Shown: positions 6,206-60,462, numbered from the stretch's first letter. The stretch: 64,000 nucleotides of DNA from Clostridia bacterium (GCA_017444895.1 JAFSVR010000005.1:1546-65545), one strand, 5' to 3'. Numbers and translations: made by a program. Notes: a model not told the origin generated them from the sequence alone.

Positions 6206-6613
6206 TTCTTCACTGCAATTTGTAAGCGGTTCATATTTTATTAGCCATTCAGGCTTAAATTTGTTTGCGTCAATGGCAAATTCAATACGCGTTTCCATTT
6301 GGAAATCATAACCGCGATTTTTTAATGCGTCATTTGAATAATAGTATCCTTTTCCAACGCTGGAAATAAGGTCTATTATGGGGACTGAAAAGGTGCAAAC
6401 ATAATAGTCGTCAAGGTTTCGTTGGTTGCATTTGAGAATATATTTTATATTTTCGGAAGCCTTTTTATTGAGGAAAAAATGTATGTATTTTGTTTCCCGT
6501 TTGTATTTATGTGTGTTTGACCTTGTTTCTAAGAAAAAGTTGCCAAGCGTGTTGGTTTTTTTGCCTAAAATATCGTCCAATTCCTTGTAATAAACAACCC
6601 TATAAATTTTCAT
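6191..6613 (-). CDS. Hypothetical protein (140 aa from ATG 6613); no motif recognised
   Basis: Intact ORF. ATG 6613 sits 6 nt downstream of a TATAAT box, and the track's start at 6619 is a TTG. There is no SD, signal peptide or TM helix. Confidence 0.5.
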   Translation of the reverse strand: MKIYRVVYYKELDDILGKKTNTLGNFFLETRSNTHKYKRETKYIHFFLNKKASENIKYILKCNQRNLDDYYVCTFSVPIIDLISSVGKGYYYSNDALKNRGYDFQMETRIEFAIDANKFKPEWLIKYEPLTNCSEEEKER

Positions 6614-6619
6614 ATACAA

Positions 6620-6648
6620 ATTATATCACTAGTTTTTTTCAATTTCAA
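6620..6648 (-). promoter_or_regulatory. Sigma-A-type promoter TTGAAA-17-TATAAT, 6 nt upstream of ATG 6613 (leaderless candidate)
   Basis: On the minus strand the -35 TTGAAA is at 6648-6643 and the -10 TATAAT at 6625-6620. TTGTAT and then the ATG follow. Confidence 0.55.
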
Positions 6649-6754
6649 TAGGCATTAAAAATTTATTGAAAAAAGTTCTTAAAAAGCATCTAAGTTAAGT
6701 ATGTTTATTAGTTCGGGTAAAATAAAAATGGCGTTCCCATCAGGGCGACTGCGT

Positions 6755-6782
6755 AAAAAAAACAACCTGAATGGTTGTTTTT
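6755..6782 (-). terminator. Terminator-like A/T-flanked hairpin inside repeat body 1
   Basis: A-run, CAACC (6763-6767), loop TGAAT, GGTTG (6773-6777), T-run. The structure is symmetric, so it could act on either strand. Confidence 0.45.
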
Positions 6783-6900
6783 AGCACAAAGCGGGGAGAA
6801 AACTTGCAAAAATTTTCGGTCTGACCGACAGGGCGAACCCGAGTCTGCTTACATTAGTTCGGGTAAAATAAAAATGGCGTTCCCATCAGGGCGACTGCGT

Positions 6901-6926
6901 AAAAAACAACCTGAATGGTTGTTTTT
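6901..6926 (-). terminator. Terminator-like hairpin inside repeat body 2; the first one encountered downstream of tRNA-Arg
   Basis: A6, CAACC (6907-6911), TGAAT, GGTTG (6917-6921), T5. Confidence 0.45.
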
Positions 6927-7018
6927 AGCACAAAGCGGGGAGAAAACTTGCAAAAGTTTTCGGTCTGACCGACAGGGCGAACCCGAGTCTGCTTACATTA
7001 GTTCGGGTAAAATAAAAA

Positions 7019-7093
7019 TGGCGTTCCCATCAGGATTCGAACCCGAACTAATGGTTCCGAAGACCATTGTGCTATCCATTACACCATGAGAAC
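7019..7093 (-). tRNA. tRNA-Arg (anticodon UCG), with CCA encoded
   Basis: A 75-nt cloverleaf folded by hand. Acceptor GTTCTCA/TGGGAAC, D-stem GTGT/GCAC, anticodon arm ATGGT-CTTCGGA-ACCAT, T-arm TCGGG-TTCGAAT-CCTGA, discriminator G, then CCA. Confidence 0.9.
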
Positions 7094-7127
7094 AATTATG
7101 TGAGAGGTATTATTCGCTTGCGAAAAC

Positions 7128-7156: not shown

Positions 7157-7192
7157 TAATATTGATAAAGTTTTCTTTTAAGTGCCAAATCT

Positions 7193-7242: not shown

Positions 7243-7944
7243 ATGAACACAATGGTTTATGTTATGCTTGCAATCGCAGTTGTGATGGCAACGGTTTTTG
7301 TTGTTTTAAGCAAAGGTCAAAGGGGATTGCTTTCGCTTTCACTTAAAAGCATTGCAAGTTTTTGCTTTACGGTTTTGGCTTTAACAATTTGCTATTATAA
7401 GGGGCTTGGCAGGTTTGGGTTGTTCATTTCCATTGGCTTGGTTGCAAGCTGTTTCGGAGATGTGATCCTTGGGTTGCCAGATATGCCAGAAATGAAGAAA
7501 AAGGCAACTGTCTTAACCCTGATTGGTGGGCTGGCTTTTGCGCTTGCTCATGTTTTCTATCTTAGTGCAATGATAATGAGATTTGGATTTGAGTGGTGGG
7601 TTATCTTGGTTGCAATTGCCCTTGGGTTTGTGTTCTTCTTTGGCAACAAGTTCATTGGCAAACTTAACTATGGTAAGCTTGGCGCAGGGATGCCTGTTTA
7701 TGCAACTTTTGTTTCACTAGTTGTTGCAGAGAGCATAATGGCATTTGTTAGTGGGGCAAACACTTATGGCGCAATTATGATTTTGATTGGCTTTATAATG
7801 TTCTGGATAAGCGATATTGTTTTGATGAATATTTACTTTGGTGGGCACAATGATAAGGCTAACCAAAAACTATATTACTATAACTTGGCTTCATATTATC
7901 TTGGCCAAATTTTAATTGCGTCATCACTAATCTTTTTAATTTAG
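7243..7944 (+). CDS. YhhN-family (lysoplasmalogenase-like) integral membrane protein
   Basis: Eight predicted TM helices. The FGDVILG and FALAHVFY motifs are typical of YhhN/TMEM86 proteins. Confidence 0.7.
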   Translation: MNTMVYVMLAIAVVMATVFVVLSKGQRGLLSLSLKSIASFCFTVLALTICYYKGLGRFGLFISIGLVASCFGDVILGLPDMPEMKKKATVLTLIGGLAFALAHVFYLSAMIMRFGFEWWVILVAIALGFVFFFGNKFIGKLNYGKLGAGMPVYATFVSLVVAESIMAFVSGANTYGAIMILIGFIMFWISDIVLMNIYFGGHNDKANQKLYYYNLASYYLGQILIASSLIFLI

Positions 7945-8059: not shown

Positions 8060-8956
8060 CTATTTGAATGTTATGATAACGCCGTTTTGCTTCGTTGCAT
8101 ATATCTCATTTGTGAACTTAATATCTCCAAGCAGATTAATTCCTTCAAGAACAATTTTTCCAAATTCGGTGTTAAGACCATCAAGATTCATATTGTCTTC
8201 AGCAGGGAAGATGAAGTTAATGAGAAGGTTAAGAAGGATTTCGCTTTGAGTGCTAGTTCGCCCATTAACGCCGATTGTGCTGTTAGAGTATTGCCATTGT
8301 TCTCCACTTATGTCTAGGTTAAAGTTAACTTCAATATAAAGCGTTTTTGGAATGATCATATTAAGTAAGAACAGAGGCATTTGCATTTCATCTGCCATTT
8401 GGGTTTTGATTCCTGTTGTGTTAAGTTTGAGCATAAATTCCATTTTGGCGCTGTTTGGGTTAAGTTCACCGTTCTCAATTTTCGGTTTAATAATAACCTC
8501 CAGAAGTTCCATATTAAGCGTGTTAATGTATTGAAGGCCATTAAGACGCTCAGCCAATATGCCACTTCCAAGCATTCCGTTTAACACGCTTGCGAGTTCC
8601 TTATCCGTGAAGGCTTTTGATTCGTTGCTAAGGGTATAATCACCATCAGCTATTGCTTTATAGTCAAGTTTTCCGCTTTCAAGTGTTGGGAATCCAACAG
8701 ATATCAGCTTGCTTTCTGCTGAAGATAGATCGGCATTTGAAAAACCGTTGCTGACAAGGTTGCTTTCATCTTTTGATGCGTATAGGGTAGACATAACCTG
8801 CGAAAGATCTGCCATATTGTTGATTCCAAAGGCGCTGAAATATTTTGGAACAATCACGCGGTCAAGCAGAAAAAAGCCACCAATTCCGATGGATCCCAAA
8901 ATTGCCAGCACAATTAAAAGGGCAATGAAAAATCGTAAGGTCCTGTTCTTTTTCAC
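8060..8956 (-). CDS. Hypothetical membrane-anchored (N-terminal TM) extracytoplasmic protein
   Basis: GTG start at 8956. The TM helix is FFIALLIVLAILGSIGIGGFFLL. No catalytic or known domain motif was recognised. Confidence 0.7.
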   Translation of the reverse strand: MKKNRTLRFFIALLIVLAILGSIGIGGFFLLDRVIVPKYFSAFGINNMADLSQVMSTLYASKDESNLVSNGFSNADLSSAESKLISVGFPTLESGKLDYKAIADGDYTLSNESKAFTDKELASVLNGMLGSGILAERLNGLQYINTLNMELLEVIIKPKIENGELNPNSAKMEFMLKLNTTGIKTQMADEMQMPLFLLNMIIPKTLYIEVNFNLDISGEQWQYSNSTIGVNGRTSTQSEILLNLLINFIFPAEDNMNLDGLNTEFGKIVLEGINLLGDIKFTNEIYATKQNGVIITFK

Positions 8957-9069
8957 TAATTCACCGCCGCATACAAACTTCCTCTGAAGATAATAACCGC
9001 AATGATTGCGCCTATGAGTAAAATAAGAAGAAGTTTAAGAATACTAAATTTTTTACCAAACAAACCCAA
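8956..9069 (-). CDS. Candidate 37-aa single-TM micro-protein (MGLFGKKFSILKLLLILLIGAIIAVIIFRGSLYAAVN)
   Basis: TTG start with AGGAGA 8 nt upstream. Its TAG stop shares a G with the GTG start of the downstream gene (TAGTG). It is too short for the ORF track and rests on sequence reading only. Confidence 0.3.
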   Translation of the reverse strand: MGLFGKKFSILKLLLILLIGAIIAVIIFRGSLYAAVN

Positions 9070-9128
9070 AATTAGTTTCTCCTGTTTATATAATTATAAT
9101 TCAATAAAGGGGTTTAGTCAAATATTTC

Positions 9129-9157
9129 TTGCTAGAATTGCTGTCTTGTGTTATACT
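9129..9157 (+). promoter_or_regulatory. Promoter TTGCTA-17-TGtTATACT, 6 nt upstream of the mrnC ATG (leaderless candidate)
   Basis: -35 at 9129-9134 and -10 at 9152-9157. TTAACT and then ATG 9164 follow. No SD. Confidence 0.5.
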
Positions 9158-9163
9158 TTAACT

Positions 9164-9619
9164 ATGAAAACTTACCAAGATTTCATAGACAAAATTGCGA
9201 ATGTTCCGGCAAGAAGGGTAAGGAGCAAAGAAGAGATTAAAAATTTGCAACCCCTTGTTTTAGCATTGGTTGGAGATAGCGTTGAGTCGCTTTTATTGCG
9301 CAGGCGTTTTGCAATTTTAACAGATTTCAAAGTTAATGAGATAACAAAAGCAATAAATTCTCTAGTTAACGCATCTGCACAGGCTCAGAGCTTAAAACTT
9401 ATTGAAGATGATTTAACACAAGATGAGCAAGATGTTGCAAGACGAGCAAGAAACACGCACACCCATTCAACTGCTAAGAACTATGATGTGGTTTCATATC
9501 GTCATGCAACTGCCTTTGAGGCGGTTTTAGGGTTCAATTATCTTTCCGGAAATGAAAGGCGCATTGAATTGTTTTTGGATAAAATTTGCAGTTATTTTGC
9601 TAAAAATGGCAAAATTTAG
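9164..9619 (+). CDS. mrnC: Mini-ribonuclease 3
   Basis: LALVGDSVESLLLRR (the RNase III-like signature of Mini-III). The size (151 aa) fits, as does the position upstream of rlmB-sigH, as in Bacillus yazC-yacO-sigH. The track's extension 9002-9163 is not coding. Confidence 0.85.
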   Translation: MKTYQDFIDKIANVPARRVRSKEEIKNLQPLVLALVGDSVESLLLRRRFAILTDFKVNEITKAINSLVNASAQAQSLKLIEDDLTQDEQDVARRARNTHTHSTAKNYDVVSYRHATAFEAVLGFNYLSGNERRIELFLDKICSYFAKNGKI

Positions 9620-9628: not shown

Positions 9629-10360
9629 ATGAATTTTGAAGGTAAAAATGCAGTTTTTGAACTTATTGGTTCAAATAAAACAATTGAAAAAATTTGTATT
9701 CAAGACAAAACAACTGATCAAAAATTGCGAGAAATTGTTTCGCTTGCGCAGGACAAACATGTTAAGCTTGAGTTTATAAGCAAGCAAGCTTTAGATAAAA
9801 TAAGTGAGACCGGACACCACCAAGGCGTTATTGCAGTTGCAACAGACTTTGTTTATGCAGACCTTGATGGAGTTGTTGAAAGCAAGAGGAAAGAAGGAAG
9901 GAGAGTTTTGCTTGTTTTGTTAGACAACGTTGTTGATCCTCATAATCTTGGGAGTATCATAAGGGTTTGTGAGTGCGCTGGTGTAACTGCGGTTGTTATT
10001 CCCAAAAACCGCTCTGCTGTTGTTAACGAAACGGTGGCAAGGATAAGCGCTGGGGCGCTTGCACATTTACCAGTTTGTAAGGTTACAAACATGGCACAAA
10101 CCATAAAAGAACTTAAAGCGAAAAATATTTGGGTGTATTCCGCAGACATGGATGGCACTCCAATGTATGAAACAGATTTGAGTGGAGACATTGCTCTTAT
10201 TGTTGGGAGTGAAGGATTTGGGGTTTCACCGCTGATAAAGAAAGAGAGTGATGGAGTTGTGTCTATTCCAATGTTTGGAAAAGTTAATTCGCTTAATGCA
10301 AGCATTAGTGCTGGCATTGTTGTTTACGAGGCTGTCAGGCAACAACTTAATAAAGAGTAG
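9629..10360 (+). CDS. rlmB: 23S rRNA (guanosine-2'-O)-methyltransferase, TrmH/SpoU family
   Basis: SpoU_sub_bind-like N-terminus. SpoU motifs LLDNVVDPHNLGSIIR, IVGSEGFG and NSLNAS are present. Confidence 0.85.
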   Translation: MNFEGKNAVFELIGSNKTIEKICIQDKTTDQKLREIVSLAQDKHVKLEFISKQALDKISETGHHQGVIAVATDFVYADLDGVVESKRKEGRRVLLVLLDNVVDPHNLGSIIRVCECAGVTAVVIPKNRSAVVNETVARISAGALAHLPVCKVTNMAQTIKELKAKNIWVYSADMDGTPMYETDLSGDIALIVGSEGFGVSPLIKKESDGVVSIPMFGKVNSLNASISAGIVVYEAVRQQLNKE

Positions 10361-12567: not shown

Positions 12568-12903
12568 ATGGCAAAATTTGGTGGATTTGGCGGTGGATCA
12601 AATATGCAAATGCAGAACCTCATGAGGCAGGCTCAGCAGATGCAACAAAAAGCTCTTGAGGCGCAAGAGGAAATTGATGGCACTGTTTTAGAAGGAACAA
12701 GCGGTGGTGGAATGGTTACTGTGAAAATTTTTGGGAACAAGGAAGTTCAAGAAGTTAAACTTCAAAAAGAAGTTGTTGATCCAGATGACGTTGAAATGCT
12801 AGAAGATATGATTGTTGCGGCTTTTAATGATGCATCACAAAAGGCGGATAAACTTAAAGAAGAAAAACTTGGTGCGTTTGGAGCAATTGGGGGGCTGATG
12901 TAA
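12568..12903 (+). CDS. ybaB: YbaB/EbfC nucleoid-associated protein
   Basis: NMQNLMRQAQQMQQK..GGGMVTVKIFGN is typical of the family. AAAGGAG lies 7 nt upstream of ATG 12568. The gene sits in the dnaX-ybaB-recR order. Confidence 0.9.
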   Translation: MAKFGGFGGGSNMQMQNLMRQAQQMQQKALEAQEEIDGTVLEGTSGGGMVTVKIFGNKEVQEVKLQKEVVDPDDVEMLEDMIVAAFNDASQKADKLKEEKLGAFGAIGGLM

Positions 12904-20521: not shown

Positions 20522-20550
20522 TTGACATTGTTTGGATAATATTTTAGAAT
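20522..20550 (+). promoter_or_regulatory. Promoter TTGACA-17-TAGAAT, 6 nt upstream of ATG 20557 (leaderless candidate)
   Basis: -35 at 20522-20527 and -10 at 20545-20550. AGGGCT and then the ATG follow. Confidence 0.5.
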
Positions 20551-20556
20551 AGGGCT

Positions 20557-22011
20557 ATGGATAAACAAATTAAAAATCAATATGATGTTGTTGTTATAGG
20601 TGCGGGAATTGTTGGCTCTTTTGTTTGCAATGCGCTAACTCAGCGTGGCGCAAAAGTTTGCCTGTGTGAAGCAGGTGAAGATGTAAGCCTTGGTGCAACG
20701 AAGGCAAACAGCGCCATTATTCACGCAGGTTATGACTGTGTTCCAGGAACAAACAAGGCGAAGTTTAATGTTCTTGGCAACAAAATGTATGAAAAAATTG
20801 CAAAACGTCTTGGCGAAAAGATAATCAAAACGGGCTCGCTTGTTGTGGCAGATAAGGATGGTCTTGATGGCCTTAAAGAACTTTATAGGCGTGGCGAAGC
20901 AAATGGCGTTGCCGGCTTAGAGATTTTAAGTCATAACGAACTTAAGCGCCTTGAACCAAATCTTAGCGATGAGATTGCCTATGGCTTGTATGCTCCAACA
21001 GCAAAACTTATTAGCCCATATAACTTTGCAATTTCTCTTTGCGAAGAATCAATTGTTAATGGTGCTGAACTTAAATTAAACTTCAAGGTTGATAAAATTT
21101 GCAAAAACAGCGGCATTTTTGAAGTAAAAAGCGGTGAAAATGCGGTTTTTGCAAAATATATTGTGAATTGTGCGGGCAGTGGATGTGCTGAAATCAACAG
21201 GCTTGCCGGCGCGGAAAAGATAGATTTGAAGTTCACCAAGGGTGAATATATAATTTTGGATAAAACAGAGGGTGCAGTGGTGAGTCGCCCAATTTTTCCA
21301 TTGCCAACAAAAAAGGGTAAGGGAATTTTGGTTTTGCCAACTGTTTCTGGCAATTTGCTTTTGGGACCAACTGCACAAGATATCAGCGAATATGAAACAT
21401 CGGTTTCAACTGCTGGCATAAGCGAAATTAAGCAAAAAACCTCTGCCATGATAAAGGGGCTTAATTTTAGAAAGGCAATTAAGTTTTATGCCGGAGTTAG
21501 GGTTAAAAGCGGGGATGACTTTATTGTTAAACTTAGCGATAAGGTTGAAAACTTTTTTTATACGGCTGGCATTGCTAGCCCAGGGCTTGCTAGTGCGCCT
21601 GCAATTGCAGAGTATATTGCAGATAGCCTTGAGCGAGCAGGGCTTAAACCAAAAACGGTTAATTGGAAGTTGCGCAAACCTTATACAAATACCAAAAAGT
21701 TATCACTTGGTGAACTTAACGCACTTATTGCAAAAAATGGAAAATACGGAAAGATTGTCTGCAGGTGTGAAGAGATAACTGAGGGGGAAATTGAGGAAGT
21801 GCTAAAAGGGCCAATAAAACCACTCACTGTTGAAGGTGTTAAGCGTAGATTAAGACCAACGATGGGAAGGTGTCAGGGCAGTTTTTGCACACCTCTTTTA
21901 ATTGAAATGATGAGCAGGGCATATAAGGTGCCGGTTGAGGAGATTAGGTTCAGGGGGGAAACACCTTTGATTGTTTCGCCGGTTAAGGAGGGTGGAATTT
22001 ATGAAGGTTGA
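20557..22011 (+). CDS. FAD-dependent glycerol-3-phosphate dehydrogenase/oxidase-like oxidoreductase with a C-terminal BFD-like [2Fe-2S] domain
   Basis: N-terminal VVVIGAGIVG (GxGxxG). The C-terminal CRCEEITEGEI..GRCQGSFC motif is present. The gene is first in the three-gene set common in anaerobic Bacillota. Confidence 0.85.
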   Translation: MDKQIKNQYDVVVIGAGIVGSFVCNALTQRGAKVCLCEAGEDVSLGATKANSAIIHAGYDCVPGTNKAKFNVLGNKMYEKIAKRLGEKIIKTGSLVVADKDGLDGLKELYRRGEANGVAGLEILSHNELKRLEPNLSDEIAYGLYAPTAKLISPYNFAISLCEESIVNGAELKLNFKVDKICKNSGIFEVKSGENAVFAKYIVNCAGSGCAEINRLAGAEKIDLKFTKGEYIILDKTEGAVVSRPIFPLPTKKGKGILVLPTVSGNLLLGPTAQDISEYETSVSTAGISEIKQKTSAMIKGLNFRKAIKFYAGVRVKSGDDFIVKLSDKVENFFYTAGIASPGLASAPAIAEYIADSLERAGLKPKTVNWKLRKPYTNTKKLSLGELNALIAKNGKYGKIVCRCEEITEGEIEEVLKGPIKPLTVEGVKRRLRPTMGRCQGSFCTPLLIEMMSRAYKVPVEEIRFRGETPLIVSPVKEGGIYEG

Positions 22012-23238
22012 TTGCCTTGTTGTTGGTGGCGGTTCGGCTGGAATGGCCAGCGCCATAAAAGCTAGTGAAAAGGCATAAAGGTTGCCATTGTCGAGCGAGA
22101 GAACAGGCTTGGTGGCATATTAAAACAATGTATTCACAATGGATTCGGCCTTAAATACTTTAAGAAGGAAATGACTGGCCCTGAGTATGCTGATGCTTGG
22201 ATTCAAAAACTAAAACAAACCAAAGTTCAGGTTTTTCTTGAAACAATGGTAAACAAAATAGAAAGAAAGCCTGATGGTTCTTTCAAGGTTTTTGTCATAA
22301 GCCCAAATGGTGCAGGATATATTGAAACGAAAAGCATTATTCTTGCAATGGGTTGCAGAGAGCGCCCAGCAGCGGCAATTTCACTTTGTGGAACCCGACC
22401 TGTTGGTGTTATCACCGCTGGCACGGCGCAAAAAATTATAAACACACAAGGCCACATGATTGGCAAGAAAATTGTTATTGTTGGTTCGGGTGATGTTGGG
22501 CTTATAATGGCTCGCAGATTTTATTGCGAAGGAGCCAAGGTTTTGGGGGTTTATGAAATTAGCCAAACGCCATCAGGGCTCAATAGAAATATTGTTCAAT
22601 GCTTAAATGACTATAACATTCCTCTTCATCTTGGCGAAACGGTGATGGAGGTTTTGGGCAAAGATAGAGTTAAAGGTGTTGTTGTTGCGAAAGTTAACCC
22701 AGACTATTCATTTGATCTTTCAACAAAACGCACCATAGCGTGTGACACAGTTGTTTTATCAGTTGGCCTTGTTCCTGAAAATGATTTGGTGAGCGGACTT
22801 GTTGATTTAAGTTCAATTACAAACGGTGCAATTGTTGATGATAATTATATGACAAACGTGCCTGGAATATTTTCTTGTGGAAATGTTTTGCATGTTCACG
22901 ATATTGTTGATGATGTTACATTTGAGGCCGAGCTTGCTGGCGAAAATGCAGGAGAATATGTATTGAATGGCAGAAATAAACAAAAAAATTACAAAACAAT
23001 AACCGGAAATGGTGTAAGATATCTTGTTCCAAGTTCGCTTCATGCTGGAACTGGATTTGTTCAAGTTAAGTTTAGAGTAGGCAAAATTTTTCGAGATGCA
23101 ACATTGTGCGCGATATGTAATGGAGAGATTATTGGAAGCAGAAAATGTAAAATTTTGCTTCCTGCCCAAATGGAACAGATGATGATTGACAGAACGAAAA
23201 TAAAAGGTGATGTTGTTATTGAAGTGAGGGAAGGATAA
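22001..23238 (+). pseudogene. Pyridine nucleotide-disulfide (NAD(P)/FAD) oxidoreductase, second subunit of the glycerol-3-P dehydrogenase-like set; interrupted by a 1-nt frameshift
   Basis: ATG 22001 gives MKVDCLVVGGGSAGMASAIKASEKA and then TAA at 22076. The protein continues perfectly (KGIKVAIVERENRLGGILKQC..) in the frame opening at 22069 and running to 23238. One base is missing in GAAAAGG (22067-22073). Confidence 0.8.
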
Positions 23239-23600: not shown

Positions 23601-23765
23601 TATAGTTTAAGGTGAAAAGAAATAAGTTGGTTCGTGCGCAAAGAAAACTTTATAGGTGTAAATTAAAAAATCTCGAAAAATCTTTTAATGATTTTTTAAC
23701 CATCAAGAAGAACGTTGCGATTGATAATGGCGAAATTCAATTCTATAATTAATTTTCAGTAGGTC

Positions 23766-23794
23766 TTGAATTTTTGCCTATTTAGTGGTAAAAT
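23766..23794 (+). promoter_or_regulatory. Promoter TTGAAT-17-TGgTAAAAT, 7 nt upstream of ATG 23802 (leaderless candidate)
   Basis: -35 at 23766-23771 and -10 at 23789-23794. TGAATTG and then the ATG follow. No SD. Confidence 0.5.
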
Positions 23795-23801
23795 TGAATT
23801 G

Positions 23802-24590
23802 ATGAATAATAATAAGCAGATAAGTTTGCCGGTTTATGAAACTTTTGGGCTTCTGCTATCGGCTCACAATATATATTCTGAAAGCCAGGATGTTAAAACT
23901 GGTGTAATTTTTAATGAAGATTTATTATACTTTCAAATTATGCTGAATGCTAATTTGCGAAATAAGTTCGGTGATAAATTTGGTGGCAAGCAATTTAATG
24001 TTGTTTCAACTTTTTTGCCTGAAAACGGAAACGAAGATGAAGTTATAAACTCAAGATACAAATATAAAAAGTCTATCAAGTGTTCAGTTCTTTTACAAAA
24101 TACTCGTAATGGGCTTCCTCCTTTCAATATTGTTAAGTCTAGATATGATGAAAACTTATTTCAAAAACTTGAATCATTTAATAATCCACAATTAAAAGAG
24201 TTAATCAATAGTTTGTTTGATGAGAGAATAGAAAACTATCCATATAATGACAAAGAAGACCATGTTAAATCTAGATATATGTATTGGTTCACGAAGGACG
24301 AGGTTTTCAAGAATGATCCACTATCAGTATTGAAAGAAAGCGCAAGAGGTGTTGTTCAGGTTCTATGCTCCCAATATGAAGACTTTAGCAAATTGACCTT
24401 CCAGGAAAAGCGTGAAGTTGAAAGAAATATTGCTCAGGTTGTTCATGAAACGCTAAAGCAGTTTGAGAAGCGCAATTTTCTATCTGACAACTATAAGTTT
24501 GTTAGGCAACTTATTGAGGATGAAAGGAAAAGGGTTGAAGAATCAAAAAACAACGAATTTGTTGAAGAAGATCAACCCACTGATGAATAA
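23802..24590 (+). CDS. Hypothetical cytoplasmic protein (262 aa) with an acidic C-terminal tail
   Basis: Intact ORF with no TM helix, signal peptide or recognised motif. The track start at 23766 is a TTG inside the -35 box. Confidence 0.55.
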   Translation: MNNNKQISLPVYETFGLLLSAHNIYSESQDVKTGVIFNEDLLYFQIMLNANLRNKFGDKFGGKQFNVVSTFLPENGNEDEVINSRYKYKKSIKCSVLLQNTRNGLPPFNIVKSRYDENLFQKLESFNNPQLKELINSLFDERIENYPYNDKEDHVKSRYMYWFTKDEVFKNDPLSVLKESARGVVQVLCSQYEDFSKLTFQEKREVERNIAQVVHETLKQFEKRNFLSDNYKFVRQLIEDERKRVEESKNNEFVEEDQPTDE

Positions 24591-40136: not shown

Positions 40137-40188
40137 ACAGATAAGAACTCGATAAGCAATTTTTATCGGGCTTTTATTTTGTTTGCTA

Positions 40189-40217
40189 TTGCAAAAATAT
40201 GCTTATGGTGATAAAAT
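40189..40217 (+). promoter_or_regulatory. Promoter TTGCAA-17-TGaTAAAAT, 8 nt upstream of the mfd ATG (leaderless or near-leaderless candidate)
   Basis: -35 at 40189-40194 and -10 at 40212-40217. AGCAGGAA and then ATG 40226 follow. Confidence 0.45.
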
Positions 40218-40225
40218 AGCAGGAA

Positions 40226-43200
40226 ATGAATAAACGCGCAAAAAACTTTTTTGATTTTTCATCATTAGGGGGCAATTATCAGGCCCTCTGTTTTGCTCTT
40301 AATGAAAATAAAAAAGTTTCAGCAATTTCAATGGGACAGGCCGAGAAAGTTGCCATTTTATCTAGTGTTGACCGTCCAGTGTTATGTCTGACGAGTGACT
40401 ATATTGGTGCAACAAGAATTCATAAACAGCTTGAAAGTCTGTTTGGAGATGGAGCGGTCTTGCTCCCAGTTTTTATTGATAACTTGCTCTATAAAAAATC
40501 TCAAACTATTGCGCCAAACCAAGAAAGGATCATTGCTCTTTCAAAATTGGTTTCGGGAAAGGCAAAGGCAGTTGTTGCGAGCATTGATGCTTTGCTTTGT
40601 CCGCTTCCAAACAGACAAAGATTTGAAGATGGTAAAATATGTATCAAAAAGGGTGAAGATGTTGATTTTGAGGCCCTGAAACAAAAGCTTGTTAAAGTAG
40701 GATACAGAAAAACTGAAATTATTGCTAGCGCTGGCGATTTTTCAATTAGGGGCGATATCGTTGATGTTTTTTCTATTCCAAGCGGGCCAATCAGAATTGA
40801 ACTTTTTGGTGATACTATTGATAAAATCGCTTATCTTAATCTTGACAATCTTTCAAGCGAAGCAAGCCTAAATGAGGTCGAAATTTACCCTAACACCGAC
40901 CTGCTTTTAAGTGATGAAGAAAATGAATATTTAACAGAGGCGCTATATTATCTTAAAGAAAAATCAACAGAAAAAGACGGTGGCGGTGGGCAACTGTCAC
41001 TTGCCATAACCGATTGCCTTTCGCGCCTTGAAATGGGGGATAGAGCGTTTTCGCTTGACTATCTTTTCCCTTTAATTATGTCAAATCTTAGCTCGCTTTT
41101 TGATTATCTTCCCAAAGACACAGTTATTGTTATTGATGAAGGGAAGATGTGTTATGACGTCATTGTTAATGCTTCAAGCGAGATTGAAATGCGCCATAAA
41201 AACCTTAAAACCAACAAAGATGCTTTGAATGATAAAGAAACGGGTTTTTTTGATTCAACTTTTGTATTGAATCAGATTGCAAAATATGGCGGAGTTGTTC
41301 ACCAGAGAATAACCAACTCTAATAGGTTTTATAATCCTGAAAAAGTCTTAACTTTCAAAAGTTTGCAACTTTCAAGGTATTATCACAATTTTCCAGAATT
41401 AGTAACTGACTTGCAAAACTGGAAGTTTAATAATTTTGACATTTATTTGCTTGCTGGAACTCCAGACAAGGTTAGAAGCCTTAATGAAAGACTAGAAGCA
41501 AACGATATTTTCTTTGATACATCTTCTGCAACGCTTTCAAGCAAAGGACAATTTATTCTTCCTGTTGAGTTTTCGGGCGGGTTTGTTCTTGCCAGTGAGA
41601 AAAAGGTTGTTGTTTCAACAACCGATTTGTTTGCACCAAAAAAATCTCAGCAAGCAGTTGTGGCATCAAGAAAAAACGTTTTCAGTGTTCCAAGGCAGGG
41701 CGACTATGTTGTGCACTCCTTCCACGGTATTGGAATTTGTGAGGGGGTTACTAATCTTTCATCTAACTTTGGTTCAAAAGACTATGTTATCGTTCGTTAT
41801 GCAGGAGATGACAAGCTTTATGTTCCAATTGATTCTCTTTCTTCGCTTGAAAGATATAGCGGGGCAGAGGCGCCTAAAAAACTTAGTAAAATTGGTGGTG
41901 TTGAATTTGCAAAGGTTAAAGAAAGAGTTAAGGCGTCTGTTAAGAAGATTGCTTTTGACTTAACTGAACTCTACGCGAAGCGAGAGGCTAAGCAGGGTTT
42001 TGCTTTTTCACCAGATTCAAGTTTGCAGAGAGATTTTGAAAACGCTTTTGCTTATATTGAAACAGAGGACCAACTCAAAAGCATTGCTGAGATAAAGAAG
42101 GACATGGAAAGCCATAAGGTTATGGACAGACTTCTTTGTGGAGATGTTGGATTCGGAAAAACCGAAGTTGCAATGCGTGCAATGTTCAAGGCCGTTCTTG
42201 ATGGGAAACAGGTTGCTTTTGTTGCGCCAACAACGATTTTGAGTGAGCAACACTATAACACCTTGAGGGCAAGGCTAGAACCGTTTGGGGTTAAAGTTGC
42301 AGTTCTCAATCGTTTCAGTTCAGCAAAGGAAACAAAAGAAATATTAAATGAACTTTCACATGGGCGTATTGATGTTTTGTGCGGAACACACCGAGTTTTA
42401 TCTGATGATGTTAACTTTAATGATATTGGGTTGGTTGTTCTTGATGAGGAACAGAAATTTGGCGTTGAAGACAAAGAAAAACTTAAAAACAAATATCCAC
42501 TTGTGGATTTCTTAACCCTTTCTGCAACACCAATTCCACGAACACTCCACATGAGCCTTTCAGGGATTAGAGATGTCAGCATAATAAATACTCCGCCAAG
42601 CGAGAGATTGCCAATTCAAACTTTTGTTTGTGAATATAGCGAAAGTTTGCTTAGAGATGCATGTATGCGAGAACTGGCTCGGGGTGGACAGGTTTTCATT
42701 TTGTTTAATAGGGTTGAAAAAATCTATCATTTTGCAGAAGAAGTGCGAAAGGTTTTGCCAGAGGCTAGAGTTTTGGTGGCTCATGGCCAACTTTCCGGCA
42801 AAGAACTTGAAGACACGGTTTATAAGTTCTATAAAAAAGATGCGGATATTTTAATTTGCACAACAATCATTGAAAACGGAATTGATATTGAAAATGCAAA
42901 CACACTTATTGTTTATGATAGTGACAACTTCGGTTTAAGCCAGCTTTATCAAATCAGGGGAAGGGTTGGAAGAGGAAATAGAACGGCGTTTGCTTATTTC
43001 ACATATAAGTTGGATAAGATTTTAAGTGAAGAGGCCTATAAACGCCTTGATGCCATAAGAGAGTTTACTGAATTTGGTTCTGGATTTAAGATTTCCATGC
43101 GAGATTTGGAAATTCGTGGTGGCGGAAACATCTTGGGTGCTGAGCAACATGGCTTTATGGAAAAAGTTGGATATGAAATGTATGCAAAATTGCTTGCAGA

Positions 43201-43702
43201 CGCCATTGCTGAAATTAAAGGGCAAAAGGTTGAAGAAAAGCAAGACACACTTATGCGTATTAGTATTGATGCATATGTTCCTGAGTCTTATATAAAAGAG
43301 CCAAGCAATAGGATGACGACGTATAAGAATATCTCAGCAATTTCTAGTCTTGATGAAAAAATAAGTTTGCAACAAGACTTTGAAAACACTTTTGGCGCCG
43401 TTCCTCAGCCGGTTTTGAATTTGATGGATATTGCTTATGCTAAACTGCTTGCAAGCAACCTTAAAATTGTTGAGATTGTTAGCACCAGCGCTGGAATTAA
43501 GTTTATTTTCTCAAAGCCTGAAGACATAACAGGAAGTGCTTATTTGGGTGAGGCACTATATAAGTTTAAGGATCGATGCGCTCTTGAATTAGGGCTTACT
43601 CCAATGATTAAGATGACGGCAGGGAAAGATGATATAACAAACCTTAAAGATTTGACGGCTTTCTTAGCCGTTGCCAATGAAGCAAAAAAGGGCAAAAAAT
43701 AG
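40226..43702 (+). CDS. mfd: Transcription-repair coupling factor
   Basis: UvrB-homology N-terminus, CarD/RID segment (GDYVVHSFHGIG), SF2 helicase motifs (GDVGFGKTEVA, DEEQKFG, LSATPIPRT) and a TRCF C-terminus. Confidence 0.95.
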   Translation: MNKRAKNFFDFSSLGGNYQALCFALNENKKVSAISMGQAEKVAILSSVDRPVLCLTSDYIGATRIHKQLESLFGDGAVLLPVFIDNLLYKKSQTIAPNQERIIALSKLVSGKAKAVVASIDALLCPLPNRQRFEDGKICIKKGEDVDFEALKQKLVKVGYRKTEIIASAGDFSIRGDIVDVFSIPSGPIRIELFGDTIDKIAYLNLDNLSSEASLNEVEIYPNTDLLLSDEENEYLTEALYYLKEKSTEKDGGGGQLSLAITDCLSRLEMGDRAFSLDYLFPLIMSNLSSLFDYLPKDTVIVIDEGKMCYDVIVNASSEIEMRHKNLKTNKDALNDKETGFFDSTFVLNQIAKYGGVVHQRITNSNRFYNPEKVLTFKSLQLSRYYHNFPELVTDLQNWKFNNFDIYLLAGTPDKVRSLNERLEANDIFFDTSSATLSSKGQFILPVEFSGGFVLASEKKVVVSTTDLFAPKKSQQAVVASRKNVFSVPRQGDYVVHSFHGIGICEGVTNLSSNFGSKDYVIVRYAGDDKLYVPIDSLSSLERYSGAEAPKKLSKIGGVEFAKVKERVKASVKKIAFDLTELYAKREAKQGFAFSPDSSLQRDFENAFAYIETEDQLKSIAEIKKDMESHKVMDRLLCGDVGFGKTEVAMRAMFKAVLDGKQVAFVAPTTILSEQHYNTLRARLEPFGVKVAVLNRFSSAKETKEILNELSHGRIDVLCGTHRVLSDDVNFNDIGLVVLDEEQKFGVEDKEKLKNKYPLVDFLTLSATPIPRTLHMSLSGIRDVSIINTPPSERLPIQTFVCEYSESLLRDACMRELARGGQVFILFNRVEKIYHFAEEVRKVLPEARVLVAHGQLSGKELEDTVYKFYKKDADILICTTIIENGIDIENANTLIVYDSDNFGLSQLYQIRGRVGRGNRTAFAYFTYKLDKILSEEAYKRLDAIREFTEFGSGFKISMRDLEIRGGGNILGAEQHGFMEKVGYEMYAKLLADAIAEIKGQKVEEKQDTLMRISIDAYVPESYIKEPSNRMTTYKNISAISSLDEKISLQQDFENTFGAVPQPVLNLMDIAYAKLLASNLKIVEIVSTSAGIKFIFSKPEDITGSAYLGEALYKFKDRCALELGLTPMIKMTAGKDDITNLKDLTAFLAVANEAKKGKK

Positions 43703-45657: not shown

Positions 45658-45688
45658 AAAACACCCAGCAGGGTGTTTTTTTGTTTTT
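45658..45688 (+). terminator. Terminator
   Basis: AAACACCC-AGCA-GGGTGTTT followed by T7. Confidence 0.8.
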
Positions 45689-45805: not shown

Positions 45806-45835
45806 TTGACAGTTTCAAGGGGCGTGGTGTAAACT
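45806..45835 (+). promoter_or_regulatory. Promoter TTGACA-18-TAAACT, 8 nt upstream of ATG 45844 (leaderless candidate)
   Basis: -35 at 45806-45811 and -10 at 45830-45835. AATAATAT and then the ATG follow. No SD. Confidence 0.45.
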
Positions 45836-45843
45836 AATAATAT

Positions 45844-47238
45844 ATGAGCAAAAAAGCAAAACAAGAGAAACTTTCTGCTCCAAAAGAAGTGATGGAAGAA
45901 GAAAACATAACGCTGGAACAAACATCTGGCGTTGTTTTGCCTGAGGAAAATTCGAAAGAAGATGGCCCTGCTAAAATACAAGAATTTGTTACAAATGAAA
46001 CGGGCGAAAAGCTTGATGTTTCTGGCGCACTTCTTAACACAGACATTGCTCTTGAAAGGCTTGAAGAGGCTGAACGCTCAGCCGAACCAAAAAAGAAAAA
46101 GAAAAGTGCAATTTGGAATATAGTTTTCTTTGCAATCAACATTTTGTTTATGTTCTTTGTTGTGAGGAGCTTGCTAAAAGAAACAACGGGTTCATCACTT
46201 GGCGAAGTTGTTGCACAACAGGGAACACAACTATATTGGTTGTTTGGGGCTTTTGGTTGCTTTTTGTTAATATATGTTTGTAATGCATTGTCGCTCAGCA
46301 TTTTTGTTAAAAATAGCACGGGGAAACGCCATTTTTTAACGTGTATTGATGCAACTATTCGTGGAAAATATTATGATTATGTAACGCCAATGGCAGTTGG
46401 GGGCCAACCTTCACAGATTTTATCTTTGATGCGAGGAGGAATATCCCCTGGTGTTGCAACAAGTATTCCAATTATAAAAATGATTGTTAACCAACTTGTT
46501 AGGTGGTCTTTAATTGTCATTTTGTTTTTCTGCGTTGCTCCACATATTGAAATGGGCTCGGCTATGGGTAGCTTGCTTGGAACGCTTTGCAAAATTTTAG
46601 CAATTGTTGGAATCATAATAACAACCATCATTTCGATAGGTTTTGTTTTCCTTGGAAGTAGCAAGATGGTAGGGCGGCGAATTGGTAAATGGTGGGTTAA
46701 GCTTGGATATAAACTGCGCATTGTTAAGAACTATCGCAAGAGTTATGACAAGTTTATGCGCACTGTTTTTGAATATCAAAGTTCAATTGCATATCTTGCA
46801 AAAAACAAGCCGGTGATGATTAAATCCGTTTTGCTTTCAATGCTTGAATTTATTGCTTGTTCATCAATGTCGTTCTTCACGTCGCTTGCCTTTTCAACCA
46901 ATCCAGAAATTGTGCTTTCAATGGAAAGCTTTTTGCCGGGAATAGTGTTGTGGATAATAAGCATGGCAAGATATCAGGTTGTTGATATGGCTTCAACCAT
47001 TATGATCCTTCCAGGCGGAACGGGGCTTAAAGAGATTTGCTTTCTTATTATGTTTAGTTTCTTCTTTGGAAATTCAAACACTGTTGCGTGGAGTTCCCTT
47101 ACATGGCGTATTTTTGATTATTATCTTTTCCTTGCGGTTGGTTTTGTTTATCTCATTGTCTGTGGGGTTGTTAAACTTGTTAAGAATCAACGAACAAGAA
47201 AACTGCAAAATTCGCCACCGGCAAACAATATTAATTAA
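45844..47238 (+). CDS. Flippase-like / lysylphosphatidylglycerol-synthase TM-domain (UPF0104) family membrane protein with a ~90-aa acidic N-terminal extension
   Basis: Polytopic. The MAVGGQPSQI and LPGGTGLKE motifs resemble the two conserved GG-E/Q loops of the family. Confidence 0.65.
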   Translation: MSKKAKQEKLSAPKEVMEEENITLEQTSGVVLPEENSKEDGPAKIQEFVTNETGEKLDVSGALLNTDIALERLEEAERSAEPKKKKKSAIWNIVFFAINILFMFFVVRSLLKETTGSSLGEVVAQQGTQLYWLFGAFGCFLLIYVCNALSLSIFVKNSTGKRHFLTCIDATIRGKYYDYVTPMAVGGQPSQILSLMRGGISPGVATSIPIIKMIVNQLVRWSLIVILFFCVAPHIEMGSAMGSLLGTLCKILAIVGIIITTIISIGFVFLGSSKMVGRRIGKWWVKLGYKLRIVKNYRKSYDKFMRTVFEYQSSIAYLAKNKPVMIKSVLLSMLEFIACSSMSFFTSLAFSTNPEIVLSMESFLPGIVLWIISMARYQVVDMASTIMILPGGTGLKEICFLIMFSFFFGNSNTVAWSSLTWRIFDYYLFLAVGFVYLIVCGVVKLVKNQRTRKLQNSPPANNIN

Positions 47239-57280: not shown

Positions 57281-57325
57281 TTTGAAAAAATTTTATTGGG
57301 GCATACTTGTTTTTAAGGAGATAGG

Positions 57326-57904
57326 ATGGAAGGAAAGAACACTGGTGCTGTTATAGCCTCAATTTTTGTTATTATTCTTAGTGCAATAATTGGCAGTTGC
57401 TTTATGGCGTTTGTTTATGCTGAAAAGAAGGTTGTGGTTAATAACCCCAAAATATATACTAGCGAATCAATATCTGTTGCAAATTCAGATGGACAAGAAC
57501 TGGAAACGCTTAAACTGAGCAAGTCTGCGCTAGGGATCAAGCCCGTAACCAGTGAAGATGATAGTGAAACATTAATTCCGTATAGCGTAACTAGTTCGGT
57601 TGGAAGTGAGGGCCTATACGCATCATTTTTTGTTAAGGCTTCAGTGCCGTGGAGATTGGTTGTCAGGGACGTTGTTGTTAGTTCATCTGGTAATGCCGAA
57701 AAAGAAAGGGAACATATAATGGTTGGGCTTGAAGATGTTAAGCATAGCGCGAAAAACTTAACAGAAGACGAAGTTGTTTTGTATGATGGAAATGCTGGGC
57801 AAGAATATAGAAAGTTTAATTTATTTGTTTGGCTACACAGCCATTCCGGGCAAGACTTGATTGGCGCACAAATCAGCTTTAATCTATATTTTCAGCAGGC
57901 TTAG
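57326..57904 (+). CDS. Hypothetical N-terminally TM-anchored protein (192 aa)
   Basis: SD is AAGGAGA. TM helix AVIASIFVIILSAIIGSCFMAFV. No motif recognised. Confidence 0.55.
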   Translation: MEGKNTGAVIASIFVIILSAIIGSCFMAFVYAEKKVVVNNPKIYTSESISVANSDGQELETLKLSKSALGIKPVTSEDDSETLIPYSVTSSVGSEGLYASFFVKASVPWRLVVRDVVVSSSGNAEKEREHIMVGLEDVKHSAKNLTEDEVVLYDGNAGQEYRKFNLFVWLHSHSGQDLIGAQISFNLYFQQA

Positions 57905-57936
57905 TTAAATATCTGTTTTTTGCACAAACTAGCTTT

Positions 57937-59454
57937 ATGAAGCTAAATGGTTTTGCAAAAGGCACAATAACGTTGTGTGCACTGATGGTTATATCCAAGG
58001 CCATTGGTGCTTTTTATCGTCTTCCATTAACTTATATTTTGGGTGCAACGGGCATGGGAGTGTATCAAACAATTTTTCCTGTTTACAGCCTTCTTCTTGC
58101 TGTTTCTAGTTCAGCAGCCCCGCAAGCGCTTTCAAAGTTAATTAGTGAAAAACACGCAAAATGTGATTATGTGGGTGAACGGCAAATCATGATTTGTGGA
58201 ACTATTTGGCTTGCAGTATTTGGGTCTATTTGTTCGCTATTGATATTCATATTGGCCAAGAATCTAAGCTGTTTTCAGGGCAATGAAAGCATTTTTATCT
58301 GTTATTATGCAATTAGCCCGGCAATTATTTTAACAGCGCTTATATGCGCATATAGGGGATATTATCAAGGGCATCAAAACATGCTTCCAACGGGAATAAG
58401 CAACTTAGTTGAACAAGTTGTTAAACTTGTGCTGGGATTGGTTTTTGCCAAACTTTTAATAGCTCGTGGCATTATATGGGGCGTTTTTGGAGCTCTTTTG
58501 GGTGTTGCGGCATCTGAGTTTATTGCGCTTATCTATCTTTCAATTAAATTCTTTTTCTTTAACCATAATAAGCAGTCAACTATATGTGGATTAAACTTCA
58601 AGCATTGCTCAGCCTCTTTGTTTAGGGTGTGCTTGCCAATAACGATAGGGGGAATCATTTTTCCACTTGTTCAGTTTATAGATAGTGGGCTTATTGTTAA
58701 TCTTTTGGTTAAAGGCGGGGTAAGTGTTCAGCGTGCAACTGCATATTTTGGGCTTTCTAGCGGAGCGGTTGGATCCCTTGTTAATCTTCCAGTTGTTATA
58801 AGTTTGTCGATTAGTAGTGCTGTTTTGCCATCAATATCAGCAAACAAAGCAGTAAAAAACCAAGAAAAGGTTAAAGAGGTTTCAACGAGGGGGCTTTTGC
58901 AGGTTTTATTTTTGGTTATCCCTTGTGCGATTGGTTTGTTTGTGTTTAGTGATGAATTTATTTCAATACTATACGCTAAAGCGCTCACGGCGGAAGAGTT
59001 GGATGTCTGTTCAAGATTGCTTCAAATTGGCGCGCCAGGTGTCATTTTTCTCGGAATTTTGCAGGTTTTGAGTAGTGTTTTACAAGGACAAGGGCGCTAT
59101 TACATTCCAGTTATTGCAATTTTACTTGGAGCAATTGTTAAAGTGGTTTTGAACATTAGTCTTGTTCAAAATGTTAATATTAATATTTTTGGTGATCAAA
59201 TTGCCAATGTTAGTTGTTATTTGTTGGCCTCTGTGTTTTGTTATATTTTTGCAAGTAAGCAAATAAAAGCCAGTTTTTGGCGTGAATTTGCAAAAATTTT
59301 TGTTGTTTCTGCATTTTTTGGTCTTTCCTTGTATGGAATTAGTTGCTTGGCATTTATAAGCAATGTTTATTTATTGCTTGTTGCAATTGCCATCGTTGCT
59401 GTTCTATATCTTTTTGTTGGGTATAAACTTTTTGTTAAAAAATGGTTAGAATAG
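57937..59454 (+). CDS. MOP-superfamily oligosaccharide/lipid II flippase (MurJ/SpoVB-like polysaccharide biosynthesis protein)
   Basis: About 14 TM helices. The N-terminal ISKAIGAFYRLPL motif is typical of MurJ/SpoVB-type proteins. Confidence 0.8.
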   Translation: MKLNGFAKGTITLCALMVISKAIGAFYRLPLTYILGATGMGVYQTIFPVYSLLLAVSSSAAPQALSKLISEKHAKCDYVGERQIMICGTIWLAVFGSICSLLIFILAKNLSCFQGNESIFICYYAISPAIILTALICAYRGYYQGHQNMLPTGISNLVEQVVKLVLGLVFAKLLIARGIIWGVFGALLGVAASEFIALIYLSIKFFFFNHNKQSTICGLNFKHCSASLFRVCLPITIGGIIFPLVQFIDSGLIVNLLVKGGVSVQRATAYFGLSSGAVGSLVNLPVVISLSISSAVLPSISANKAVKNQEKVKEVSTRGLLQVLFLVIPCAIGLFVFSDEFISILYAKALTAEELDVCSRLLQIGAPGVIFLGILQVLSSVLQGQGRYYIPVIAILLGAIVKVVLNISLVQNVNINIFGDQIANVSCYLLASVFCYIFASKQIKASFWREFAKIFVVSAFFGLSLYGISCLAFISNVYLLLVAIAIVAVLYLFVGYKLFVKKWLE

Positions 59455-59462
59455 AAAAAGTA

Positions 59463-59492
59463 TTGTCAAAATTAATAAATAAATGTTAAAAT
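59463..59492 (+). promoter_or_regulatory. Promoter TTGTCA-18-TGtTAAAAT, 7 nt upstream of the dusB ATG (leaderless candidate)
   Basis: -35 at 59463-59468 and -10 at 59487-59492. AAATCAT and then ATG 59500 follow. No SD. Confidence 0.5.
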
Positions 59493-59499
59493 AAATCAT

Positions 59500-60462
59500 A
59501 TGAAACAGAATGGATTTAATATTGGCAATGTTAAGGCAGAAAACAATCTTTTTCTTGCCCCGATGGCGGGGTTTAGCGATGTTGGTTTTCGTTCACTTTG
59601 CAAGAAGTTTGGCGCAGGGTGGACTGAAACTGAAATGATAAGCGCGAAAGCATTGCTTTATAATAATGAAAAAACAAAAAGGATGCTTGCGTGTGCAAGC
59701 AACGAGAAACCAAAGATTGTTCAGCTCTTTGGTCATGAACCGGAAGTTTTTGCAAAAGTTGTTTCCAGCGGGGTGCTATCTTCCTTTGATGTTATTGACA
59801 TTAACATGGGATGCCCAGCACCAAAGATTTATAATAATGGTGATGGCTGTGCACTTATGAAAAACCCTGCTCTTGCACAGAAAATTATTGAGGCAGTTGT
59901 GGGTTCAACAGATAAGCCCGTTATGGTTAAATTTAGGTCTGGCGTTGATGATAAGCACCTGAACTATCTTGAATTTGCAAAAATGTGTGAAAATGCGGGG
60001 GCTTCAGCTGTTGTTTTGCATCCGAGAACTCGTGAACAGTTTTATGCAAACCACTCAAATTGGGAGCATATAAGAGAAGTTGCAGACAGTGTTTCAATTC
60101 CTGTTATCGCTAGTGGCGATGTTAAATCAAGGGCTGATTATGCTAATCTTATTGAAAATTATGGTGCAAGTGGGGTTATGATTGGGCGAGGGGCCCTTGG
60201 AAACCCTAATATTTTCTGCGAATGCATGGGGAAGGAAAACTCACAAGACAAGTATAAATCGCTTATGTATATTCAAAAAACACTTCTGAAATATTTTGAA
60301 GAGGGGTATGTGCTAGGGCAGATGAGAGCCCATCTTGTGCATTTTGTTAAAAATATCCCGTGTGCAGCAGAAACCAAGGTTAAGCTTCTTAAAATAGAAA
60401 CGCTAAAGGAACTTAACAAAGAATTAAGAAATGTTCTAAAAAATGCAAAAACGGTGTTATGA
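59500..60462 (+). CDS. dusB: tRNA-dihydrouridine synthase
   Basis: LAPMAGFSD, INMGCP and KFRSG motifs of the Dus family. Confidence 0.9.
   Translation: MKQNGFNIGNVKAENNLFLAPMAGFSDVGFRSLCKKFGAGWTETEMISAKALLYNNEKTKRMLACASNEKPKIVQLFGHEPEVFAKVVSSGVLSSFDVIDINMGCPAPKIYNNGDGCALMKNPALAQKIIEAVVGSTDKPVMVKFRSGVDDKHLNYLEFAKMCENAGASAVVLHPRTREQFYANHSNWEHIREVADSVSIPVIASGDVKSRADYANLIENYGASGVMIGRGALGNPNIFCECMGKENSQDKYKSLMYIQKTLLKYFEEGYVLGQMRAHLVHFVKNIPCAAETKVKLLKIETLKELNKELRNVLKNAKTVL

Follow-up and report, generated by a model that had tools for sequence, protein, structure and literature searches.

Probable leaderless expression of seven genes with promoter-abutting start codons in a 64-kb stretch from an uncultured member of the Clostridia

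The DNA described here is a 64-kb stretch (GCA_017444895.1, JAFSVR010000005.1:1546-65545; hereafter the window, with positions counted from its first letter) of a metagenome-assembled genome (MAG) of an uncultured Clostridia bacterium from gut or rumen, deposited at NCBI with locus tags IJS68_*. It has a GC content of 37%, a strong bias of genes towards the plus strand and a positive GC skew. Seven of its genes start with an ATG only 6-8 nucleotides (nt; N6-N8) behind the -10 box of a promoter and lack a usable Shine-Dalgarno (SD) sequence. These genes are probably expressed as leaderless mRNAs, a well-supported interpretation to which a probability of about 0.8 is assigned. It is supported by the enrichment of -10 boxes at this distance, the absence of an SD, the evidence for the start codons and the spacing kept in orthologues.

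With promoters of the sigma-A type, the start point of transcription usually lies some 7 nt downstream of the final T of the -10 box, preferably at a purine, and translation without an SD is established for leaderless mRNAs beginning with AUG in other bacteria. In the proposed mechanism, housekeeping promoters of this type are so placed that the first transcribed nucleotide would be the A of the ATG or lie 1-2 nt ahead of it. The resulting mRNAs would contain neither a 5' untranslated region (UTR) nor an SD, and the ribosome with initiator tRNA would bind the 5'-terminal AUG directly and begin translation there. The exact transcription start and the mode of ribosome recruitment are what we infer, the start only from the position of the -10 box (N6-N8).

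Promoters were sought as a TTGACA-like -35 box and a TATAAT-like -10 box separated by a spacer of 17 +/- 1 nt, with a loose cut-off of at least 9 of 12 matching positions. SD duplex energies were calculated for positions -20 to -4 paired with the 3' end of the 16S rRNA and are given in kcal/mol. The seven layouts listed in a preliminary description of the window are present in the sequence precisely as given there: a TTGnnn -35 box, a spacer of 17 or 18 nt, a TAnnnT -10 box, N6-N8 and ATG. They score 9-11 of 12, all conform to the sigma-A (sigma-70 type) promoter, and five (6613, 9164, 23802, 40226 and 59500) have a TGn extension of the -10 box. The TTG of the -35 box is invariant at all seven sites and in their orthologues.

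On the minus strand, a promoter at 6611-6648 reads TTGAAA (6648-6643), 17 nt, TGaTATAAT (-10 box at 6625-6620), N6 and ATG (6613-6611), with an SD energy of -2.3. Its gene (6191-6613) encodes an orphan protein of 140 amino acids (aa) and is preceded by a tRNA and terminator-bearing repeats. The remaining six lie on the plus strand. mrnC, encoding mini-RNase III (9164-9619), heads a unit continued by rlmB, a sigH-like gene and dnaX, and is preceded by TTGCTA-17-TGtTATACT-N6-ATG (9129-9166; -10 box ending at 9157, SD energy -1.6). A glpA-like gene (20557-22011) for a FAD oxidoreductase similar to glycerol-3-phosphate dehydrogenase heads an operon with further genes downstream, is divergent from glpK, and has TTGACA-17-TAGAAT-N6-ATG (20522-20559; -10 box ending at 20550, SD energy -2.0). 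The hypothetical gene at 23802-24590 (262 aa) has TTGAAT-17-TGgTAAAAT-N7-ATG (23766-23804; -10 box ending at 23794, SD energy -2.9). mfd (40226-43702), which follows a terminator-like hairpin (40148-40170) behind a pth-like gene, has TTGCAA-17-TGaTAAAAT-N8-ATG (40189-40228; -10 box ending at 40217, SD energy -5.8). A flippase-like gene of the LPG_synthase_TM type (45844-47238), with a strong terminator upstream at 45658-45679, has TTGACA-18-TAAACT-N8-ATG (45806-45846; -10 box ending at 45835, SD energy -5.3). The dusB gene (59500-60462) has TTGTCA-18-TGtTAAAAT-N7-ATG (59463-59502; -10 box ending at 59492, SD energy +1.0), located in the 45-nt gap behind a MurJ-like gene. Six of the seven are clearly first genes of their units, being divergent from a neighbour or placed after a terminator. 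This had been claimed for all seven and is not clear for dusB: no terminator precedes it, so its promoter lies inside what may be a longer unit.

The weight of the evidence lies in the position of the promoters and not in the mere occurrence of promoter-like strings. Among 52 curated gene starts in the window, seven have a promoter (at least 9/12) with the -10 box ending 6-8 nt upstream, against a mean of 0.46 in 3000 dinucleotide shuffles of the proximal 60 nt. The shuffle maximum was 4, so seven was never reached (Poisson P about 6e-7). No promoter falls in the bins at 0-2, 3-5 and 9-11 nt, a second mode of seven starts lies at 18-20 nt, and a promoter-centred histogram of the distance between -10 box and start also peaks at 6-8 nt. 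The comparison with shuffled upstream regions, proposed in the preliminary description, thus gives a sharp enrichment over shuffles and over neighbouring offsets alike. It could be held that, at 37% GC, intergenic DNA often contains TAnnnT hexamers with a loosely matching -35 box and that seven coincidences were picked; window-wide, the loose 9/12 pattern is indeed only about 1.3-fold more frequent than in shuffles (75 vs 58, 74 vs 55 and 72 vs 59). Chance of this kind is nevertheless effectively refuted by the counts above, and the signal is specific in position, tied to the absence of an SD, conserved in orthologues and absent from a Bacilli control (see below).

SD energies have a median of -2.3 at the seven sites and of -8.2 in the other genes, most of which lie between -6 and -12. 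Five sites range from +1.0 to -2.9. At 40226 the complementarity is mis-spaced, consisting of AGGA at -6 to -3 and ending two bases from the ATG; at 45844 it is mis-placed, 5' of the -10 hexamer and between the -35 and -10 boxes. The claim that none of the seven has a usable SD therefore stands. Energies above -6 were found in 7/7 of these genes vs 9/45 of the others (Fisher P = 8.6e-5), which bears out the expected correlation between promoter position and missing SD. All seven starts are ATG, and six SD-led genes of the window start with GTG or TTG.

The distance from -10 box to start in the window is bimodal, with 6-8 nt for genes without an SD and about 18-33 nt for genes with one. Six units (7243, 12568, 17356, 38490, 52272 and 60597) had been contrasted with the seven as having normal leaders and strong SDs. 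Their SDs are strong (-7.7 to -12.0), and in five of them the -10 box ends 20-57 nt 5' of the start; for 12568 the search gave no promoter. In SD-led first genes such as those at 7243, 17356, 35595, 38490 and 63206 (minus strand), the -10 box ends just 18-33 nt before the ATG, so that their 5' UTRs would be roughly 12-26 nt long and hold little besides the SD. The other units of the organism are thus predicted to have very short, SD-led leaders.

The argument depends on the correct identification of the start codons. If starts had been mis-called, the true ones would lie downstream with an SD inside the apparent coding sequence, and the promoters would produce ordinary leaders. In-frame candidates with a moderate SD do occur far downstream, for example 135 nt behind 59500 and 234 nt behind 40226 (both -7.1), and certain homologues of mini-RNase III lack about 20 aa at the N-terminal end. 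Downstream starts would, however, remove conserved residues: the Dus domain begins at residue 19 of the dusB product, the FAD-binding GxGxxG motif occupies residues 12-17 of the glpA-like protein, with ATG 20557 the only start codon 5' of it, and mfd products align from residue 1. No earlier start codon is possible in the open reading frame (ORF) at 20557, 40226, 45844 and 59500, and lengths and N-termini of homologues agree with the proposed starts. Nine window proteins translated from the proposed starts are exactly those annotated on a 69,432-nt contig of the MAG by the NCBI Prokaryotic Genome Annotation Pipeline (PGAP; MBQ7452693.1 to MBQ7452741.1, the first being the product of the gene at 6613), and the PGAP starts coincide with the proposed ATGs at all seven sites. 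Mis-calling is accordingly regarded as very improbable.

The mrnC start shows what such a mis-call looks like. Its ORF is open upstream to 9002, and gene calls differ between 209 aa (ENA) and 151 aa (NCBI). The stretch upstream is occupied by a divergent minus-strand promoter, TTGACT-17-TATAAT (9121-9093), with AGGAG ahead of a small unannotated ORF (8957-9121, minus strand). The end of this ORF overlaps the GTG start of a 298-aa gene at 8956, an arrangement kept in the related loci L087 and L088. Because of this arrangement the plus-strand extension from 9002 to mrnC is considered spurious. The orthologues begin with the same MK.Y..FI.KI, and the 209-aa call is an example of the error of SD-centred gene callers. 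The divergent promoter also leaves no space for a long mrnC leader. A conserved GTTTAGTCAAATA motif 5' of the mrnC -35 box was considered as a separate signal and rejected, as it is the -35 box (TTGACT) of the divergent promoter.

Conservation in related genomes is the strongest evidence for the predicted leaderless mode. By mfd product, the nearest genomes (58-69% identity) are rumen or gut MAGs of uncultured Clostridia, among them one that carries the label Acutalibacteraceae, and the next are Christensenellales-like MAGs with 40-49%. Spacing between promoter and ATG in orthologous loci, another check named in the preliminary description, is conserved for six of the seven genes, in orthologues that span 35-74% protein identity and in which surrounding and spacer sequences have diverged.

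For dusB the layout TTGnnn-17/18-TAAAAT/TATAAT-N6/7-ATG is present in 5/5 lineages (55-59% identity), with one GTG start and one start mis-extended by the gene caller: TTGCTT-17-TAAAAT-N6-GTG in L001, TTGCTA-17-TAAAAT-N6-ATG in L002, TTGCAC-17-TGaTAAAAT-N6-ATG in L090 and TTGTAA-17-TATAAT-N6-ATG in L091. The N-terminal length is kept, with an IGN motif at residues 8-10. mrnC has TTGnTn-17-TGnTATACT-N6-ATG in 3/3 lineages, the orthologues in L087 (59% identity) and L088 (51%) reading TTGATT-17-TGt/TGcTATACT-N6-ATG. The gene at 23802 retains N6-N8 and the TG extension in 4/4 lineages (L083, TTGAAA-17-TGtTATCAT-N6; L084, TTGATT-17-TGcTAAAAT-N8; L086, TTGTCA-17-TGaTAATAT-N6), and the rest of the upstream sequence cannot be aligned. 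The glpA-like gene has TTGACA-17-TAnAnT-N6-ATG in 3/4 lineages. L083 and L086 both read TTGACA-17-TAAACT-N6-ATG, the latter at an in-frame ATG four codons 5' of the called start; in the fourth lineage (L084/L085; about 2340-2408 in L084) the promoter is kept but followed by N20 with an SD-like GGGA. For the flippase-like gene, N6-N8 is seen in four lineages with identities as low as 35% at the protein level (L003, TTGACA-17-TAAACT-N6; L007, TTGACT-17-TAAATT-N6; L012, at 35%, TTGTCA-18-TATAAT-N6), and N14 in a fifth (L010); in L005 and L009 the layout is not clear. Orthologues of mfd keep the promoter at N7-N11 (7 in L006, 9 in L005, 10 in L003 and 11 in L007/L008) and have no SD. The sole exception is L004 (about 9900-10010), where a 28-nt leader with AGGAG precedes a TTG start.

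SD-led neighbours in the same loci (glpK and the AA-kinase, DUF1846 and rubrerythrin genes) retain their SDs. Alternative SD-led starts are conserved in no orthologue set and occur in single lineages only, namely L004 for mfd and L084/L085 for the glpA-like gene. There the same promoter appears to serve an SD-led gene, which suggests that the two modes interconvert in evolution.

The breadth of the signal was assessed with an annotation-free pipeline, in which maximal ORFs were taken and every candidate start was tested for an SD or a promoter. Leaderless-type starts numbered 7/55 in the window, 15/194 in close relatives, 16/331 in more distant (Christensenellales-like) Clostridia and 0/338 in Bacilli, with 0-7 calls at control offsets; since the compared loci are orthologous neighbourhoods, these counts are not independent, and they indicate a trend and no genome-wide rate. 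In the Christensenellales-like group, a promoter-centred histogram has a spike at 6-7 nt that involves at least 10 gene families. The Bacilli control has a spike at offset 4, which was rejected as a signal: it comes from a promoter-like string inside a conserved mfd coding segment (…MRDLSIRGAGN…) that recurs in orthologous loci. In Bacilli loci L023-L075 (about 12750-12870) this string reads TTTACA-17-TAAAAT, 4 nt before an internal Met codon of mfd.

The seven genes might also be translated from leadered mRNAs in an SD-independent way, transcription coming from promoters further upstream or from read-through, and the A/T-rich stretch before the ATG serving as an unstructured landing site for the ribosome. 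An A/U-rich bias before genes without an SD has been discussed as a possible signal for S1 or for an unstructured leader (PMC5397173), a promoter-like site of 11/12 lies 52 nt 5' of the gene at 23802, and no terminator separates dusB from the gene upstream. An A/U-rich enhancer, however, needs neither a TTG -35 box exactly 17-18 nt away nor a TGn element, both of which are conserved in orthologues, and it fails to explain why offsets 6-8 are occupied but not 0-5 or 9-11. Terminators stand ahead of mfd and the gene at 45844, and mrnC and the glpA-like gene adjoin divergent promoters or genes that leave no space for a further upstream promoter. An Rfam scan of the window found three tRNAs only, and no riboswitch or leader RNA that would explain any of the seven sites. 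SD-independent initiation on leadered mRNAs is thus considered unlikely.

Several observations weigh against leaderless expression, or against its strict form. N8, and N9-N11 in some mfd orthologues, predict a leader of 1-4 nt instead of none. None of the fetched loci contains an orthologue of the gene at 6613, which also has no Pfam family, so that conservation of the layout covers the other six. The predicted structure at the 5' coding ends of the seven is not weaker than in the other genes (mean minimum free energy of the first 40 nt of coding sequence -2.8 vs -2.6 kcal/mol, P = 0.57), a result that is in itself neutral. The site 5' of the gene at 23802 (TTGATA-17-TATAAT, 23721-23749) scores better than the abutting promoter and could provide an alternative, leadered transcript without an SD, and read-through transcripts from the MurJ-like gene may carry dusB too. 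The dependence among the compared loci belongs here as well.

As predicted from the sequence, the leaderless mode is used by roughly one in five transcription units of the window (about 7 of some 33; 7/52 genes, 13%). Its users are mostly housekeeping genes of low expression, namely mfd, dusB, the mrnC operon, the glpA-like operon, the flippase-like gene and two hypotheticals. A wider proposal is offered tentatively, its chances being judged a little below even: that a low-GC, standard-code clade of gut and rumen Clostridia, comprising the lineage of this MAG and the Christensenellales-like MAGs, has independently raised the share of units with leaderless initiation to roughly 20-25%, with orthologues switching between leaderless and SD-led initiation. 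Firmicutes are regarded as the most SD-dependent phylum, and 20-25% would approach the level of the Actinobacteria.

Apart from translationally coupled genes and frameshifted fragments, all genes of the window without an SD have a -10-like hexamer at N6-N8, including two weaker candidates in addition to the seven. The MurJ/Polysacc_synt-like gene (57937-59454, plus strand) has CAAACT-N6-ATG (57925-57939), an SD energy of +1.3 and no good -35 box. Its orthologues hold xAxACT 6-7 nt before the start (L001, CAAACT-N6-ATG at the second ATG; L002, CATACT-N6-ATG; L090, TAAACT-N7-GTG). The gene for a 185-aa KwaA-like membrane protein (61428-61985, minus strand) has AAAAAT-N6-ATG (61983-61997) and a weak SD (-3.8), and the 12 nt 5' of its ATG are identical in L002; it was left out of the count because the spacing to the -35 box is poor. 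Three genes inside operons also lack an SD: a sigH-like sigma factor gene at 10364, a tadA-like deaminase gene at 37929 and a 91-aa ORF at 56715. Their starts lie 0-5 nt from the upstream stop or overlap it, which suggests translational coupling. The start arrangement of the sigH-like gene at the upstream stop is identical in L087 and L088.

Two further features of the window were observed. The second gene of the glpA-like operon is frameshifted (22001-22171). Its N-terminus, MKVDCLVVGGGSAG…, is encoded in one frame from about 22001 and followed by a stop; the remainder is a 355-aa ORF in another frame (22171-23238), and the product is absent from the protein collection. Relatives carry an intact version of 410-411 aa that overlaps the glpA stop, and the window's copy is a pseudogene, or else the assembly is wrong near an A-run. 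A tRNA-Arg(TCG) gene at 7019-7093 (minus strand) is followed by two more unit copies at a spacing of 144-146 nt (6707-7093, minus strand). A terminator-like hairpin is found in each unit, which opens with the final ~17 nt of the tRNA (…CCTGATGGGAACGCCA). The array resembles a small RNA present in several copies, or a nest of att-site duplications left by integration at the tRNA, and the orphan gene at 6613 is located just past it.

If mapping of transcription starts confirms the prediction, frequent leaderless expression would extend beyond high-GC Actinobacteria, Deinococcus-Thermus, archaea and Mollicutes to abundant uncultured Clostridia of gut and rumen. Promoter strength and recognition of the 5'-AUG, and not SD strength, would determine how strongly housekeeping genes such as mfd, dusB and mrnC are expressed, and expression constructs for these organisms would have to allow for the leaderless mode. 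Annotation of such MAGs is affected as well, since SD-centred callers mis-extend or mis-place leaderless starts, as for mrnC. Pairs of orthologues that differ in mode offer a natural system for studying the interconversion.

The mechanism itself is already known, and the modest extension made here concerns its frequency and its conservation across a group of uncultured low-GC Clostridia. Our literature search found no paper on leaderless mRNAs in Christensenellales, their relatives or the lineage of this MAG. The statement of the preliminary description that leaderless mRNAs are not a textbook trait of low-GC Gram-positive bacteria is right, but they have already been predicted for a minority of Firmicutes (PMC3160421, PMC6028130). 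The leaderless group of GeneMarkS-2 took in 90% of Actinobacteria and 97% of Deinococcus-Thermus but only 36/1064 Firmicutes (PMC6028130), and 717/4930 species-level bins of a human-gut set were assigned to it as well (PMC8153819).

The window resembles GeneMarkS-2 group C, which includes Actinobacteria such as Mycobacterium tuberculosis and also Deinococcus-Thermus, in that the -10 box lies 6-8 nt before the starts of operon-first genes, the distance described as the bacterial leaderless signature (PMC6028130), that these have no SD, and that SD-led genes coexist. The share of affected units is put at roughly 20-25% here and has been reported as 25-50% for group C (PMC6028130; PMC3898074; PMC4007540). 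Those lineages are high-GC and have a bare TAnnnT with a weak or absent -35 box, whereas the window has 37% GC, a full TTGnnn -35 box, a TAtAAT-like -10 box and a frequent TG. Group C genomes with the standard code (code 11) are reportedly almost all high-GC (bioRxiv 10.1101/2022.07.25.500264). With the Firmicutes of Zheng et al. (2011) the window shares a TG-extended TAtAAT beside the start, low GC, a minority of genes affected and a dominant use of the SD (PMC3160421). These authors predicted leaderless genes in 56/209 Firmicute genomes, with a mean of 4.2% and a maximum of 16.6% of genes, so that 7/52 genes (13%) is near the top of their range. Their cases are concentrated in Lactobacillales (Lactococcus-Streptococcus, Oenococcus-Leuconostoc) and Mycoplasma, and their text does not mention Clostridia (PMC3160421). 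The Clostridia with mapped transcription starts belong to the same class, have the same sigma-A promoter type and do possess a few mRNAs with a 5' UTR below 10 nt. Leaderless mRNAs account for 6/1646 start sites in Clostridioides difficile (bioRxiv 10.1101/2020.08.10.244764) and about 2% in Clostridium autoethanogenum (PMC6873888). Against these 0.4-2% stand the about 7 of some 33 units predicted from sequence in the window.

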